Source: Parcubacteria group bacterium (GTDB taxonomy: Bacteria; Patescibacteriota; Minisyncoccia; Moranbacterales; UBA11712). From it: a stretch of 15,434 nt of DNA. The DNA is taken from NCBI GenBank assembly GCA_041659065.1, contig JBAZYY010000019.1:1-15434 (forward strand), in the 5' to 3' direction. The translations under genes were made by a program, and so were the position numbers. A model generated the notes under the pieces. It worked only from the letters and a program-made list of their open reading frames with translations, made no database searches and had not been told where the DNA came from. Below are positions 8,587-13,086 of this stretch, piece after piece (position 1 is the first letter of the stretch; each line of letters opens with the position of its first letter).

Positions 8587-8955
8587 ATGAAAAGAAGAAT
8601 AAAATTAGTGATTAGTAGCATCACGTCCGCGGTTCTCCTGGCGCCGGTAGTGACGATGGCGCAGCTCAAGCCGCCGACAACCGGCGAAACCGGTCTTCCG
8701 GCCGGATCCATATTTGATATTATTAAGAATGTCATGTTGTGGCTTTTGGGAATCCTGGGATTCGTGGCGGTTATCGGGTTTGTCATTAGTGGAATTATGT
8801 ATCTGGTTGCGGCCGGCGACGAAAAAAGACAAGAAACAGCAAAGCAGGCTATGTACTATTCGATTATCGGCGTTATCGTCGGACTGGTGGGCCTTGTGAT
8901 TCTCTACGCAGTTCAGAAGTTGCTTGGGGGGCAGAGTGGATCGACCACTTTCTAG
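8587..8955 (+). CDS. Minimal T4SS-pilin-like (TrbC/VirB2-like) protein; candidate major subunit
   Basis: 122 aa. Signal peptide is MKRRIKLVISSITSAVLLAPVVTMA, cleaved before Q. The two-TM hairpin is NVMLWLLGILGFVAVIGFVISGIMYLVAAGDEKRQETAKQAMYYSIIGVIVGLVGLVILYAV, with a positively charged cytoplasmic loop. It has a strong SD and its own downstream terminator. Confidence 0.85.
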   Translation: MKRRIKLVISSITSAVLLAPVVTMAQLKPPTTGETGLPAGSIFDIIKNVMLWLLGILGFVAVIGFVISGIMYLVAAGDEKRQETAKQAMYYSIIGVIVGLVGLVILYAVQKLLGGQSGSTTF

Positions 8956-8982
8956 CATTCGCGAAAAAATATTGTTTCTAAA

Positions 8983-9016
8983 ACGGTTCTCTTTCTAGGT
9001 GAGAGCCGTTTTTTTA
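8983..9016 (+). terminator. Rho-independent terminator after the minimal pilin gene
   Basis: The 9-bp stem acggttctc / gagagccgt contains one G·U pair and has a 9-nt loop. It is followed by tttttttattattttt. Confidence 0.7.
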
Positions 9017-9043
9017 TTATTTTTCAAAAAAACTATTGTATTG

Positions 9044-9049
9044 TATAAT
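9044..9049 (+). promoter_or_regulatory. Candidate -10 box (TATAAT preceded by TG) for the 9073 transcription unit
   Basis: The sequence ttgtattgTATAATttc lies just downstream of the terminator and ~25 nt before ATG 9073. No convincing -35 element. Confidence 0.3.
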
Positions 9050-9072: not shown

Positions 9073-9546
9073 TTGTTTTCGATAAAAATGAAAAAAACAA
9101 ACGGAAAAATATTTTCAAAATTACTTAATCTTCCCCGATCCATCTCCCCCTCCCCCTCCCTTTCCCTTTCTCTATCTCTATCTCTATCTCTATATCTATA
9201 TCTCTCTCTATCCATATCTCTTTTCCTAGCATTTATATTTGCAGGAAATGCGAAAGCCCAATGGGTGCCGGCGAAGCACCTGTTGACTAATCTCCCCTAT
9301 AGCCCGATATATCTGATCATATACAACGTGATGAAGTGGGGCTTGGGAATCTTCAGTTTCATTGCTGTTATCAGCTTTGGCATTAGCGGGGTGATGTATC
9401 TGGTTGCGGCTGGGGACGAAAAAAGACAGGAAGGCGCCAAACGGGCTATGTACTATTCCATCATGGGGGTCATTGTGGGCTTGAGCGGGTTGGTTATTAT
9501 CTATGCCGCGATGAAGATGCTCGGAAACCAGACAACCCAATTCTAG
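9073..9546 (+). CDS. T4SS-pilin-like (TrbC/VirB2-like) protein with an unusually long, repeat-encoded signal peptide
   Basis: 157 aa; an alternative start is ATG 9088 (MKKTNGKIF...). The signal peptide ends ...FLAFIFAGNAKA|QWVPA, the same A|Q cleavage context as the 8587 gene. The core GIFSFIAVISFGISGVMYLVAAGDEKRQEGAKRAMYYSIMGVIVGLSGLVIIYAA is ~80% identical to the 8587 core. Confidence 0.75.
   Translation: MFSIKMKKTNGKIFSKLLNLPRSISPSPSLSLSLSLSLSLYLYLSLSISLFLAFIFAGNAKAQWVPAKHLLTNLPYSPIYLIIYNVMKWGLGIFSFIAVISFGISGVMYLVAAGDEKRQEGAKRAMYYSIMGVIVGLSGLVIIYAAMKMLGNQTTQF
9141..9220 (+). repeat. CT-rich microsatellite inside the 5' coding region of the 9073 gene. It combines ctcccc repeats, two C5 homopolymers, four perfect TCTCTA units and degenerate TATCTA/CT units.
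   Basis: The sequence is catctccccctccccctccctttccctttc(tctcta)x4 tatctatatctctctctatccatatctc. The TCTCTA units occupy 9169-9192. The region translates to SPSPSLSLSLSLSLSLYLYLSLSISL inside the signal peptide. Confidence 0.85.
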
Positions 9547-9581
9547 GTGGTATGAATAAATTTCAATAATCTAAATAAAAA

Positions 9582-10331
9582 ATGAAAAAAAAAGAAAAAA
9601 AATATATTATTGGATTCTCCGTCTTTTTATTGTTTTGCATGTTCGCGATTCAAGCTTTTGCCGATGAATACGGATCGGAATCCAGAAAAATATTGGACAA
9701 ACCGATACTTATTGCCGCCGTGGGAGACGATTGCAACACGTCTGCTGATTGTTCTTCGGGAATGTCATGCGTGCCTTGTGAGAGCGTCGGGGCAAAATGT
9801 CTGGGAAATGTTTGTTGGAATGGCAGTAATACGTCTGCAGCCGCTAGCTGTTCTGAAACTTGTTACCCCATAGCCTGCCCTGAGGGCACAAGCCAAATAT
9901 CAGGTACTTGTTCTGACCAGTATAAATGTTGCGGTGGATCTGCAACAAATTATGAAAATAGCGGTTCAGTTCCCGCGGGGACTTGGGGAACTAATGTTAA
10001 TACTCAGACGGGTGGTGTAAGTAGCGTTTCGGGCTACAGCGGTTCAGCTAGCGGAGTAATCCTTCCAACTTGGAGCGGTCTTCCCACTGGAACGGTTGAA
10101 GGGGTCATCTTTACTTTCTTAATGTGGCTCCTCAGTATTTTTGGCTTTATTGCCATTATCAGTTTTATCGTGAGCGGCGTGCAATATTTTCTGGCTTTTG
10201 GCGAAGAAAAAAATATGGAAAGAGCCAAGCGGAATATGGAGTATTCGATTATTGGGGTGGTCGTCGGCCTTATCGGAGTTATTATAATTTTCGCCGTGGA
10301 TTTCTTGTTGAGAGGCGTTCCGTTGTTCTAG
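9582..10331 (+). CDS. Secreted T4SS-pilin-like protein with an N-terminal 12-Cys domain ending in CCGG
   Basis: 249 aa. Signal peptide is MKKKEKKYIIGFSVFLLFCMFAIQAFA. The Cys-rich domain lies at about 9732-9935 (DDCNTSADCSSGMSCVPCESVGAKCLGNVCWNGS...CSDQYKCCGG). A G/S/T linker follows. The pilin module lies at about 10092-10328 (VIFTFLMWLLSIFGFIAIISFIVSGVQYFLAFGEEKNMERAKRNMEYSIIGVVVGLIGVIIIFAV). Confidence 0.75.
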   Translation: MKKKEKKYIIGFSVFLLFCMFAIQAFADEYGSESRKILDKPILIAAVGDDCNTSADCSSGMSCVPCESVGAKCLGNVCWNGSNTSAAASCSETCYPIACPEGTSQISGTCSDQYKCCGGSATNYENSGSVPAGTWGTNVNTQTGGVSSVSGYSGSASGVILPTWSGLPTGTVEGVIFTFLMWLLSIFGFIAIISFIVSGVQYFLAFGEEKNMERAKRNMEYSIIGVVVGLIGVIIIFAVDFLLRGVPLF

Positions 10332-10429: not shown

Positions 10430-11449
10430 TTACCGCTGGTAAAGTGTGACCGGTCCCAAGGGGGCTGGAATTTTCCAGCCGTTGAGACCGCGAATCTCCA
10501 CTTTTACTGAGGTCACTTTTTTGAGCTGACCTTTTTTAATGGAGATTTGGCAGGCGCCGGGGAATGGCATCTGCACAGCCGAGTAGATCCGGCCGTTAAT
10601 CTTAACCTCAAACTTTCTGACAACCGAAGTTTGAGGAAGGACGAACTTCAACCATAGATCGCCGAAAGCCGGCGGCGGCTCGTCTAGATCAAGCTTATAG
10701 ACGATCCACTCCCCGGCCCTCTGGTACAAGATGGCGGAAGCATTAAACTTGTCCGATAGGGCCGGAGCCAATATGGCTCCGGTGACCTGGTTTCCGGTTG
10801 TGGCGAGGGTGTTTACCCAACGCCTGACCCCCGGAAATGCGGCGTAAGAGTACCAGATGACTAGGACTAGCACCACCAGCCAGAAGATTCTCCGTCCGGT
10901 GCTCATTGAAGTGCGGGCGGTAGATGTCGTGGCGGCTGTCCGAGGTGCGGTGATTGCGTACCAAATCCCTTGCAGGATCCGAAAAGCAATGTATACCGCC
11001 AGCAGAAGCAGTAAGCCCGTGATGATATCAGCCCAGTCAATCCCCGGGATCGGGGACGGCCCTAGCTTGGGAACTCCGGGGATAGCCGGGGTTCCACTAG
11101 TCGGAGGAGCCGTAGGTGTTGTGCCTGCTCCGTGACCAAAGATAGGAGGAATTCTCGGCGCCGGAGCAGATGGGGCAGTTGTGCCTCCGCAATTGCGGAT
11201 TTTGAGGATTAACCACAGCGCTGCTCCCACTGCCAGTCCATACACAGCATACCAGAAGTACTGTATGGCTTGAGCAGTTCTTGCTGCGAAAGTTGGTGCG
11301 GCGGGAGGTGCCGCAGGCGCTCCGCCGCCAGCAGGAGGAGGCGCGGGGACTGCTCCACCAGCAGGTGCGGCAGGAGGAGTTTGCTGTTGCCAGTAACGGT
11401 AGCCGAAGTATCCAGCGACCACTAATATCGCAAGAATAATCATGCCCAT
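10430..11449 (-). CDS. Pro/Ala/Gly-rich polytopic membrane protein (hypothetical). It is translationally coupled to the upstream SPFH gene.
   Basis: 339 aa with about 4 TM helices. Low-complexity PAAPAGGAVPAPPPAGGGAPAAPPAAP loops separate the helices, and there is a ~140-aa C-terminal soluble domain. Its start ATG (11447-11449) overlaps the SPFH stop TAA (11449-11451) as TAATG. Confidence 0.65.
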   Translation of the reverse strand: MGMIILAILVVAGYFGYRYWQQQTPPAAPAGGAVPAPPPAGGGAPAAPPAAPTFAARTAQAIQYFWYAVYGLAVGAALWLILKIRNCGGTTAPSAPAPRIPPIFGHGAGTTPTAPPTSGTPAIPGVPKLGPSPIPGIDWADIITGLLLLLAVYIAFRILQGIWYAITAPRTAATTSTARTSMSTGRRIFWLVVLVLVIWYSYAAFPGVRRWVNTLATTGNQVTGAILAPALSDKFNASAILYQRAGEWIVYKLDLDEPPPAFGDLWLKFVLPQTSVVRKFEVKINGRIYSAVQMPFPGACQISIKKGQLKKVTSVKVEIRGLNGWKIPAPLGPVTLYQR

Positions 11450-12531
11450 TAGGTTTTATCTCCCTTGTTTTTAAACCTATTCTCGATGGACTGAATGGCG
11501 CCTGCTAGGCCACCCAGTAAATCTCCACTTATAGCGTAGACATTTGCTCCAGTCTTTCCAAGGGTCTCGAGCCTTCGTTGGTCGAGGTAAAAGTTACGAG
11601 CCTCTTCCCATGATATGGGATGTCCGCTCTTTAGAGCTGATTCCATAATCGCCTCGATGGCCGCAGTCCAACCCTTGGCATCTGTAACATTTGCCGACAT
11701 TCTCTTGTCAGCTTGGAATTTTTGGAGGCGCGCTTTATCGCCTTCCTCACCGTAATCAAAGTCTGGCATGTAAAAATCCTTGACCATGGCTCCGGTTTTT
11801 TCCAATAGCTGATCGCAAAGTAAGCTCAAAGAGTTTGCCACGATATCGGGTCTCTTTGTGTCAGCTTCTTCGCTCCTTAGAGCTTGGAACTTCGGACGAA
11901 CCGAATTATCAAAGCTCTCTTCTAAGTGGCCTACAGGGTCGCGGTAGTTATAGACCCACTTGATTGGGTCAACTACTTCATACCAGATATGGCCTTCAAT
12001 CGTGACAGTCACATCCTGAAGCTCTAGTTTCTTCCGCAGTTCTTCCGTAAACAAGTCACGGCGAAGCCTAACCTGGTACGGAACTGTTGCTTTTACTTTA
12101 TCGATTATCCCAGGCAAACATAAAATCCGTGGACCCGGATAAGCAACTCTGCGGAAACGCCCGAAGGTTTCAATTACATCGACTTCTTTTTCAGGCTTTT
12201 GAACATAGCCATGGGCGATATAAAAGCCTGCCGCCAAAATTGAGCCCGCAATGCCAGCCGATGCCGCTTCGTCGAAATAGCTTCCAATTAGTCCGCCGAT
12301 TATTGCACCGGCAGAAACCAAAACGGAGAAAACGATCGTCGGTACCAACCGAATGATCCAATTCGCTCGCATCGAATTTTCTTCCTCTCCATCCGATTCT
12401 TCTTTTGGATGAATTTTTTTAAACTTTATTATGACAATCAATATGATTGCCAATGGGACTAGGATTAGTGACCAATCCCAGCTTTTAATCGTCCACCATA
12501 CACTTCGCATAAAATCAATCATTTCCCACAT
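11449..12531 (-). CDS. SPFH/band-7 (stomatin/HflC-like) membrane protein
   Basis: The track ORF starts at TTG 12555. I prefer ATG 12531, preceded by a strong SD AAGGGAG with a 6-nt spacer. It has an N-terminal TM. The domain VIETFGRFRRVAYPGPRILCLPGIIDKV...TKDnv-like...VTVTIEGHIWYEVVDPIKWVYNYRDP...RSEEADT fits the SPFH fold pattern. Confidence 0.75.
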   Translation of the reverse strand: MWEMIDFMRSVWWTIKSWDWSLILVPLAIILIVIIKFKKIHPKEESDGEEENSMRANWIIRLVPTIVFSVLVSAGAIIGGLIGSYFDEAASAGIAGSILAAGFYIAHGYVQKPEKEVDVIETFGRFRRVAYPGPRILCLPGIIDKVKATVPYQVRLRRDLFTEELRKKLELQDVTVTIEGHIWYEVVDPIKWVYNYRDPVGHLEESFDNSVRPKFQALRSEEADTKRPDIVANSLSLLCDQLLEKTGAMVKDFYMPDFDYGEEGDKARLQKFQADKRMSANVTDAKGWTAAIEAIMESALKSGHPISWEEARNFYLDQRRLETLGKTGANVYAISGDLLGGLAGAIQSIENRFKNKGDKT

Positions 12532-12889
12532 ACGAGTCTCCCTTATTTTGTCCAAAATTGGACTATAAAATTTTCAAGGTGCCCCCAGGGGCTTCCCTTT
12601 TTACCAAAATGCCCTGCGATGCCGACAATTCAGACATCATATTATTATATACCAAATATAAGTAATTGTCAATATGTACGAAGCAAGCCTTTTTTGCTAT
12701 GATTCACCCCGTACTGCGGATATAGCGAAACAGATTAAATAGAGCTTAAGAATGCCTAATAATTCTGTAATTCGCGTGAAACAAAGCATAGATTAGCAAT
12801 ACTTCAATTTATAGAATTTTTTGTCGGGGTGGTCCCGCACAAATGCTCCGCATTCTGCGGGATAAATTCCATGGCGATTTTTTAATACT

Positions 12890-12970
12890 GGGCGAGTGGT
12901 GAAATGGTATACACGCGTGCCTTAGGAGCACGTGGGGCAACCCGTGGAGGTTCGAATCCTCTCTCGCCCA
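12890..12970 (+). tRNA. tRNA-Leu (anticodon UAG), class II with a long variable arm; no encoded CCA
   Basis: Manual fold. Acceptor GGGCGAG/CTCGCCC plus discriminator A. D-arm GTG/CAC with GG in the loop. Anticodon stem CGTGC/GCACG with loop CTTAGGA (anticodon TAG). A 13-nt variable arm carries a GGG/CCC hairpin. T-arm GGAGG-TTCGAAT-CCTCT. Confidence 0.88.
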
Positions 12971-13086
12971 CAATTATCAAATGGAGGCTTTTACCCACCA
13001 AAGCTTTAGCGTCGGCGGGCGAGTCCTCTCCCCGGCACACTAATATTTAATGTTGGGGTTTCCCAACTTCAAATGTTTTAAGGAGT

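Follow-up and report, generated by a model that had tools for sequence, protein, structure and literature searches.

Results

The Pilin Gene Array and the Repeat-Bearing Gene

The DNA analysed here, a stretch of 15,434 bp referred to below as the window, carries a tandem array of at least four pilin-domain genes, located at 7745-8533, 8587-8955, 9088-9546 and 9582-10331. The first of them encodes two pilin domains and also matches PF04956 (TrbC/VirB2). The third, which is locus WC858_06390 of a Parcubacteria group bacterium MAG (protein MFA5872313.1), bears a CT-rich hexamer repeat within the region encoding its leader. The product of this gene matches PF18895 (T4SS_pilin) over residues 74-139 with 28.8 bits vs. 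a gathering score of 26.6; it thus belongs with the conjugation-type (VirB2/TrbC-like) pilins and not with the type IV pilins. The gene and its upstream region comprise the following features:

8980-9019, plus strand: intrinsic terminator after the upstream pilin paralog, with a 12-bp stem, a 9-nt loop and a U run (hairpin at 8980-9012)
9021-9049, plus strand: promoter-like site TTTTCA - 17 nt - TATAAT with 10 of 12 consensus matches (a consensus match only)
9088-9546, plus strand: gene for a pilin precursor of 152 aa (VirB2/TrbC-like T4SS pilin, PF18895)
9088-9258, plus strand: leader (signal-peptide) coding region, 57 codons
9259-9543, plus strand: mature pilin domain of 95 aa, with two predicted long hydrophobic helices and the short charged AGDEKRQEGAKRA loop between them

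The terminator hairpin has a folding energy of -16.3 kcal/mol (z = -5.47 vs. shuffles); the consensus scanner overlooked it because its loop exceeds 8 nt. Taken together, the upstream terminator and the promoter-like site indicate that the repeat-bearing gene forms a transcription unit of its own.

Arrays of this kind, i.e., tandem and divergent PF18895/PF04956 pilin genes, are familiar in Patescibacteria, where VirB2-like arrays of 2-11 divergent genes occur in 383 assemblies (PMC12102498). Neither VirB4 nor any other T4SS gene was found within the 15.4-kb window. This does not exclude that the array encodes T4SS pilins, since according to the same source a pilin gene lies near virB4 in 1135 of the 1948 Patescibacteria assemblies having both. 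A Pfam scan of the N- and C-terminal extensions of the neighbouring pilin paralogs gave no match. At the DNA level the paralogs are 71% identical, which rules out recent gene conversion between them.

The Start Codon and the Layout of the Precursor

The start of the repeat-bearing gene has been called in three different ways: the NCBI and ENA gene calls begin at GTG 9265 and give 93 aa, the JGI call on an identical contig gives 71 aa, and the Logan call begins at ATG 9088 and gives 152 aa. The evidence favours ATG 9088. The start context at this codon, AAAAATGAAAAAAA, recurs in two neighbouring pilin genes, those at 7745 and 9582, and the GTG 9265 start falls two residues past the AxA↓Q motif that is aligned in all the paralogs and homologues. 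Moreover, the ortholog described below retains both the N-terminus and the FAGNAKA↓QW sequence, and the intergenic spacings on its contig match those of the window, so that the whole 60-nt difference between the two genes falls inside the leader. The absence of the leader from the deposited NCBI protein can be explained by the low-complexity repeat having misled the start-site prediction. An alternative start upstream, TTG 9073, would give 157 aa. The initial annotation had assigned the repeat to a pilin paralog and, within it, to the part encoding the signal peptide, which proved correct, and had put the length of the signal peptide at 62 aa; the latter value would hold only for the TTG 9073 start, the leader counted from the better-supported ATG 9088 being 57 aa long.

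The leader begins with a basic n-region, MKKTNGKIFSKLLNLPR, which is followed by the repeat, the sequence LFLAFIFAG and the c-region NAKA, after which comes Q58. The basic residues of the leader are K2, K3, K7, K11 and R17. The predicted processing site A-K-A↓Q aligns with A-L-A↓Q of the paralogs, and both the AxA↓Q site and the AGDEKRQEGAKRA loop align across the homologues. The layout of a Sec-type signal peptide is thus present in full: a basic n-region, a hydrophobic core, and small residues at -3 and -1. In the length of the core and in total length, however, the leader exceeds the Sec-type norm. The core of a typical Sec signal peptide comprises about 7-15 residues; here, the hydropathy plateau extends over residues ~23-47, and about 30 residues are hydrophobic or semi-hydrophobic.

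In the AlphaFold model, which is of moderate overall quality (pLDDT 65.6), residues 23-54 form one helix, and two further helices span residues 74-107 and 111-149 (pLDDT 74-81), so the mature part is predicted to fold into a helical hairpin. A PDB sequence search revealed no relative of the pilin, and Foldseek with the AlphaFold model returned nothing significant (an archaeal conjugation pilin appeared at E = 5), helical hairpins being weak queries.

Anatomy of the Hexamer Tract

The tract consists of 14 in-frame hexamers that span 84 bp (9139-9222) in the gene's own frame and correspond to codons 18-45 of the PF18895 pilin precursor. Its parts are as follows:

9139-9222, plus strand: hexamer array of T[C/A][C/T][C/A][C/T]N units, encoding (Ser/Tyr)-(Leu/Ile/Pro) dipeptides
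9145-9168, plus strand: sub-arrays (TCCCCC)x2 and (TCCCTT)x2, which hold both C5 runs
9169-9192, plus strand: perfect core (TCTCTA)x4, encoding (Ser-Leu)4, a pure repeat of 24 bp
9201-9209, plus strand: TCTCTCTCT, a 4.5-unit dinucleotide run, the longest in the window
9146-9166, minus (template) strand: canonical G-quadruplex motif GGGAAAGGGAGGGGGAGGGGG, the only one in the window

From 9139 on, the hexamers are TCCATC, TCCCCC x2, TCCCTT x2, TCTCTA x4, TATCTA, TATCTC, TCTCTA, TCCATA and TCTCTT, and their product reads SI SP SP SL SL SL SL SL SL YL YL SL SI SL. The C5 runs lie at 9146-9150 and 9152-9156; five such runs occur in the window. Tandem Repeats Finder (TRF) placed one array, CTCCCC x2.8 with a 100% match, at 9144-9160 and another, TCTCTA x8.8, at 9169-9221. 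The second, with a score of 71 at 82% match, is the best-scoring array of the window, in agreement with the earlier statement that nothing comparable occurs elsewhere in it. The TCTCTA array is degenerate and has four perfect units in its core. This core is the sole part of the tract long and pure enough for appreciable slippage.

To set a baseline for the tract statistics, we used 200 dinucleotide-preserving shuffles. Period-6 self-matches were found at 63 of 78 positions vs. a shuffle maximum of 41, the longest exact period-6 run was 19 vs. a maximum of 12, and the G-free stretch at 9138-9228 reached 91 nt vs. a maximum of 56 nt. The results clearly show that the repeat is real and well outside chance expectation. 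The CT-rich hexamer repeat with four perfect TCTCTA units and two C5 runs, as initially described, is thereby confirmed by TRF, by reading in frame and by the shuffles, and the limits first given for it (9141-9220) deviate from the ends of the array by no more than 2 nt. A gain or loss of hexamers was also expected to leave the reading frame intact, and indeed, all the changes from -4 to +3 units keep the ORF.

The region includes a pure pyrimidine run of 31 nt (9143-9173). The G-quadruplex motif is not significant alone, with 0.18 such motifs per shuffled window, and is a by-product of the C-rich hexamers. Rfam revealed no RNA family at the tract. Its one match within the window is a tRNA, which lies away from the tract.

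The Tract in Other Assemblies and in the Ortholog

The tract is base-for-base identical in the JGI contig Ga0172379_10184735 and in the ENA MEGAHIT contig ERZ27249449 k141_617501, and it is also identical in the Logan contig SRR18595301_60, which matches the window over 4.4 kb. Two datasets, with three or four assemblies between them, have thus yielded the same tract. An assembly artefact is ruled out by the identity of the tract from different pipelines and by its length of 84 bp, which is less than a typical read. A single SNP, 9021 T>C, located ~120 nt upstream of the tract, distinguishes the JGI and ENA contigs from the window; it is the sole SNP between the datasets and falls on the first base of the promoter-like site. 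The length of the tract is therefore the same in two datasets, or populations, set apart by a SNP.

The only ortholog among the protein-database matches listed (P0001) is a protein of 132 aa encoded on a syntenic JGI contig of 7,667 bp (IMG 3300075153). It starts with MKKINRKIFSKLLNL, and its n-region is MKKINRKIFSKLLNLTR vs. MKKTNGKIFSKLLNLPR in the window protein. The two proteins share 14 of 17 residues at the N-terminus and all nine residues of FAGNAKAQW, with the same AKA↓Q site. The leader of the ortholog is exactly 20 residues shorter, i.e., by 10 hexamers or 60 nt, and the whole of this difference lies inside the repeat: the corresponding region, FLSLTLSLSL, comprises about 5 X-Leu units vs. 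14-15 in the window protein. The intergenic spacings are 136 and 34 nt on the ortholog's contig vs. 132 and 35 nt in the window. The mature domains are 85% identical, the changes being conservative, and no frameshift is seen. The conservation of both flanks around a segment 20 residues shorter indicates that the tract is translated and that its length varies in frame between lineages.

Two alleles only have been found for this ortholog group (152 aa and 132 aa), both in frame. A cluster look-up yielded no further members of the group, exact-protein look-ups for the gene and both its neighbours returned the same allele only, and scans of the GTDB species genomes, one with patterns for the leader and another with patterns for the mature domain, gave no match. 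As for the repeat numbers in relatives, which the initial annotation proposed to compare, a difference of ten hexamers separates the ortholog from the window gene, and no difference is seen between the two SNP-separated datasets.

In the wider family (1,953 members at E<=0.001), none of the best 150 representatives carries a tandem dipeptide repeat in the leader. The more distant positional homologues (L002 and L008) have ordinary leaders of ~27 aa devoid of a CT repeat. In 85 short single-domain relatives, the mature N-terminus is preceded by 30 residues in the median and by 56 at most, compared with 57 here. A leader exceeding those of all 85 relatives fits a recent lineage-specific expansion. 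The repeat is an insertion relative to every homologue aligned and, as judged from these alignments, is specific to the lineage and confined to the predicted leader.

Discussion

Probable Origin of the Repeat by In-Frame Slippage

The data obtained are best explained by a translated coding microsatellite, which was probably made by slippage and is tolerated in a leader that is presumably cleaved off, so that the length of the leader is polymorphic in frame and does not act as an on/off switch. The hydrophobic core of the ancestor would have included about five (Ser/Thr/Phe)-Leu dipeptides encoded by a CT-rich segment, as in FLSLTLSLSL of the ortholog, and repeated replication slippage in steps of 6 nt would have brought this segment to 14-15 units in the lineage of the window. 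All the steps being multiples of three, the frame of the pilin would never have been broken. Since the leader would be removed at AKA↓Q58, and its core needs rough hydrophobicity only, such an expansion could be tolerated, presumably as a nearly neutral change, the outcome being an in-frame polymorphism of leader length between lineages. Both slippage and its direction (expansion here or contraction there) are deduced from a comparison of protein sequences.

The structure of the tract is consistent with such an origin. Its variant units adjoin one another as identical pairs (TCCCCC x2, TCCCTT x2 and TATCTM x2) beside TCTCTA x4, which points to repeated duplication of units after point mutation; point mutation alone would be insufficient. 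For Leu, the core unit uses CTA, which the other genes of the window choose less often than any other Leu codon (9%), and this suggests that the composition of the tract was set by duplication of DNA, not by codon choice. The repeat combines a unit that is a multiple of 3 nt, at least three perfect copies, a length polymorphism that preserves the frame, and conserved flanks, as characteristic of coding microsatellites. Repeat tracts with units of 6 and 9 nt, termed 'in-frame', have been catalogued in Neisseria (PMC5953494), and the same tolerance accounts for the concentration of hydrophobic short tandem repeats of human proteins in signal peptides that are cleaved (PMC9581044).

The expansion may not be entirely neutral, and a quantitative cost or effect is conceivable. 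A hydrophobic stretch of ~30 residues could serve as an uncleaved anchor or could slow down cleavage. A functional effect, if any, would concern the efficiency of membrane insertion or of leader cleavage.

Alternative Explanations

The first alternative ascribes an adaptive role to the repeat: a hypermutable number of units would act as an in-frame 'rheostat' that tunes the length of the leader and, through it, export, cleavage or retention of the pilin, giving graded surface variation in an episymbiont population. With four perfect 6-nt units, the core is above the cut-off of >=3 copies that PhasomeIt applies to units of 6-9 nt, a class termed 'in-frame' (PMC5953494), and high-frequency in-frame variation of the tract is conceivable. 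The orthologs differ by 10 units, a promoter-like site and an upstream terminator belong to the gene alone, and the pilin array of which it is part is variable, a kind of array proposed to aid host adaptation in Patescibacteria (PMC12102498). However, the hexamer array is degenerate, matching at 82% and containing no more than 24 bp of pure repeat, its length is identical in the two SNP-separated datasets, two alleles only have been found, and the importance of leader length is without support. We therefore regard this explanation as unlikely. A more specific proposal would be that the hexamer tract serves as a heritable and reversible 'volume control', the length of the leader setting the balance between export with cleavage and an anchored precursor, so that targeting, not the frame, is varied; this seems rather unlikely.

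Another alternative treats the gene as a decaying paralog, in which the repeat, with two Ser-Pro units among its hexamers, would have expanded out of control and disabled the leader of a redundant copy on its way to becoming a pseudogene. The leader longer than those of all 85 short relatives, the prolines and the ~30-residue core are indeed atypical; the Pfam score barely exceeds the cut-off and is well below that of the neighbouring pilin (41.5 vs. 28.8 for the repeat-bearing gene), and with at least four pilin-domain genes in the array, redundancy is plausible. Nevertheless, the mature domain is intact and differs from that of the ortholog by conservative substitutions, no assembly shows a broken ORF, and the gene has kept its promoter-like site and start context, which makes decay quite unlikely.

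The tract might also be untranslated, with the start at GTG 9265 (93 aa) and the CT repeat acting as a 5′ untranslated or regulatory element. Besides the short NCBI/ENA and JGI calls, an AGGA sequence is found 15 nt upstream of GTG 9265, and as all three frames are open over the repeat, an open frame there is uninformative. Such a start, however, would deprive the protein of its leader and begin it past a processing motif conserved in every paralog and homologue. In the ortholog, the ORF is open from MKK, with the flanking residues (14 of 17 and 9 of 9) kept around the 60-nt change; the ATG context is shared by the sister genes, and long forms are called by Logan for the window gene and by JGI for the ortholog. 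An untranslated tract is therefore improbable.

According to the initial annotation, slippage in the C5 or CT tracts would shift the frame and switch the gene on or off, in what was called the classic signature of a contingency gene. Switching of this type is known for (CTCTT)n in opa and (CT)n in oipA. In position the tract resembles these two, being part of the sequence that encodes the signal peptide of a surface protein, and a change of +/-1 in a C5 run or of +/-2 in the CT run would cut the product to 46 or 66 aa; but a frameshift truncates any gene, and so this truncation does not discriminate. The published cut-offs for mutability in Neisseria are G>=9 (G7 being the shortest tract documented), at least six copies for dinucleotides, and at least five for tetra- and pentanucleotides (PMC5953494). 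The two C5 runs and (CT)4.5 reach none of these values; TCTCTA x4 passes only the rule for units of 6-9 nt. Moreover, the C5 runs are not peculiar to the pilin gene within the window. An A at every sixth base interrupts the CT run, thereby converting a frameshifting dinucleotide repeat into a frame-neutral hexamer. The classic cases are long pure tracts with units that are not multiples of three, quite unlike the degenerate 6-nt units found here. Among the sequences found (two alleles, a very small sample), none is out of frame, and this, together with the same tract length in two SNP-separated datasets, leaves on/off switching unsupported and very improbable.

Finally, by analogy with the G-quadruplex linked to recombination at pilE of Neisseria, the polypyrimidine/polypurine tract with its template-strand G-quadruplex could be imagined to act through non-B DNA and so to stall replication or transcription or to stimulate recombination between the paralogs. 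In spite of the 31-nt pyrimidine run and the window's only G4 motif (9146-9166, minus strand), this is hardly credible, given that a chance G4 motif is expected in 17% of the shuffled windows, that hexamers encoding Ser-Pro and Ser-Leu yield such a motif as a matter of course, and that paralogs only 71% identical in DNA show no sign of recent gene conversion.

Comparison with Known Repeat-Bearing Genes

A close parallel to the in-frame microsatellite of the window is found in Helicobacter pylori oipA (and genes of the sabA/hopZ type), where a CT dinucleotide repeat lies in the signal-peptide coding region. In both oipA and the window gene, the repeat comes after a ATGAAAAAA start and encodes alternating Leu and Ser residues of the hydrophobic core. 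The LSLTLSLSL sequence of the shorter ortholog is strikingly similar to the oipA leader, M K K A L L L T L S L S F (PMC6327388), and the tract of this ortholog might even be a pure (CT)n with on/off switching of the oipA type. The oipA gene differs in its pure (CT)5-9 tract, whose unit length is not divisible by three, and in having observed alleles of both the on and the off type, whereas in the window, the unit is an in-frame hexamer, the longest pure CT run has 4.5 units, and no off allele has been seen.

In the opa genes of Neisseria, too, the repeat sits in the leader-coding part. It is CTCTT(n), a pyrimidine-rich repeat within the ORF of multi-copy genes for surface proteins (PMC11475388), and in this respect resembles the tract described here; however, it is a pentamer present in 5-24 copies and acts as an on/off switch (PMC5953494, table). 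The window tract, in contrast, has a hexamer as its unit, of which 4 copies are perfect and 10 degenerate, all in frame.

The staphylococcal Clf/Sdr proteins contain Ser-Asp dipeptide repeats, which are encoded by coding VNTRs. Likewise, the 'in-frame' tracts that PhasomeIt identifies in Neisseria have, as here, a unit that is a multiple of three and vary in length between strains with no loss of frame (PMC5953494). All these repeats are located in mature, surface-exposed or stalk regions and alter the protein displayed; the repeat of the window, in contrast, lies in a presumably removed leader and leaves the mature pilin unchanged.

Eukaryotic signal peptides offer another example of repeats tolerated in a cleaved hydrophobic core: of the human STRs classed as 'ordered', 61.7% are in signal peptides (PMC9581044). 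These are, however, single-amino-acid repeats, mostly poly-Leu, in contrast to the hexamer-encoded dipeptide repeat of a CPR bacterium, with a leader about twice the family norm. As to the VirB2-like arrays of Patescibacteria, the available part of PMC12102498 describes sequence divergence among the paralogs and, within that part, does not mention repeat-driven variation in leader length.

As found, the window gene provides an example of a coding microsatellite tolerated in a presumably cleaved leader, a kind already known. If the tract proved unstable within populations, this would point to repeat-driven surface variation in CPR bacteria, and of an unusual mode, with export being tuned rather than the frame switched; the repeat is a possible tuner of pilin export. 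The gene also holds a lesson for annotation, three gene callers having given three answers (93, 71 and 152 aa) for one and the same gene.

Annotation and start region of the repeat-bearing pilin gene

The pilin gene carrying the CT-rich hexamer repeat was called differently from one database to another. In the NCBI and ENA calls, it starts at the GTG at 9265 and encodes a protein of 93 aa without the leader, the JGI call gives 71 aa, accompanied by a 35-aa antisense ORF over the repeat, and the Logan call gives 152 aa.

9265-9546: NCBI gene call for the repeat-bearing pilin (WC858_06390 / MFA5872313.1)
L006 (JGI contig) 1011-1118 and 1217-1432: JGI calls at the repeat-bearing gene

The deposited protein MFA5872313.1 very probably lacks its N-terminal part, the start prediction having been misled by the low-complexity repeat.

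The start context AAAAATGAAAAAAA (Met-Lys-Lys) is common to three pilin genes, and no obvious Shine-Dalgarno sequence was seen there; the paralog at 8587, by contrast, has a GGAGG 8 nt upstream.

7741-7765, 9084-9108 and 9578-9602: pilin gene start contexts AAAAATGAAAAAAA

The MAG differs from the JGI and ENA contigs by a sole SNP (9021 T>C), which alters the initial T of TTTTCA, the −35-like hexamer of a promoter-like site that precedes the repeat-bearing gene.

Sequence features of the repeat and of the next paralog

In the repeat core, Leu is encoded by CUA, which is the rarest Leu codon (9%) among the window's remaining genes; the window also encodes a tRNA that reads this codon.

12890-12971: tRNA-Leu, anticodon TAG, reads CUA

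The sole canonical G-quadruplex motif of the window, GGGAAAGGGAGGGGGAGGGGG with loops of 3/1/1, lies within the repeat on the template strand; its presence there is not significant in itself, with 0.18 expected per shuffled window.

9146-9166, minus strand: G-quadruplex motif GGGAAAGGGAGGGGGAGGGGG

In the next pilin paralog, A9 and then A8 follow immediately 3′ of the start codon (ATG AAA AAA AAA GAA AAA AAA).

9585-9602: A9 and A8 runs at the start of the next pilin paralog

This A-run is the longest homopolymer of the window and a likelier slippage candidate than the C5 runs in the repeat. The independent JGI and ENA contigs, L001 (1483 bp) and L004 (1481 bp), which are two assemblies of another dataset, break at a nearly identical pair of positions. 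The first break lies within the two-domain pilin gene; the second lies in the A-rich beginning of the gene that follows, where L001 and L004 terminate within the A-run at 9597 and 9599, respectively.

8115-8119 and 9597-9599: L001/L004 contig breaks

The near coincidence of these breaks suggests heterogeneity between strains, or repeated sequence, in the vicinity of the pilin array.

Distant relatives and flanking genes

Pilin genes occupy the same array position in two more distant relatives, L002 and L008.

L002 1912-3282: same-position pilin, 456 aa
L008 3476-4792: same-position pilin, 438 aa

The leader of these pilins, and of the proteins P0013, P0015 and P0016, is normal, and a ~330-aa Asp/Gly/Ser/Tyr-rich low-complexity extension runs from the leader to the pilin domain. 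Low-complexity N-terminal growth of the same-position paralog therefore recurs in another form.

Furthermore, neighbouring pilin-domain proteins in the window bear Cys-rich N-terminal modules, e.g., CTAAGGTC...CNPDQD...GACCAPK.

5557-6912, 7745-8533 and 9582-10331: pilin-domain proteins with Cys-rich N-terminal modules

The 451-aa pilin-domain protein contains two copies of this module and a ~190-aa Cys/His-rich C-terminal domain with no Pfam match.

In L002 and L008, the pseudouridine synthase gene comes immediately after the pilin array; in the window, two genes separate them.

10430-12555, minus strand: 339-aa protein (Pro/Ala/Gly-rich N-terminal region) and SPFH/Band 7 protein

This segment could have been gained by insertion in the window's lineage or lost in both L002 and L008.
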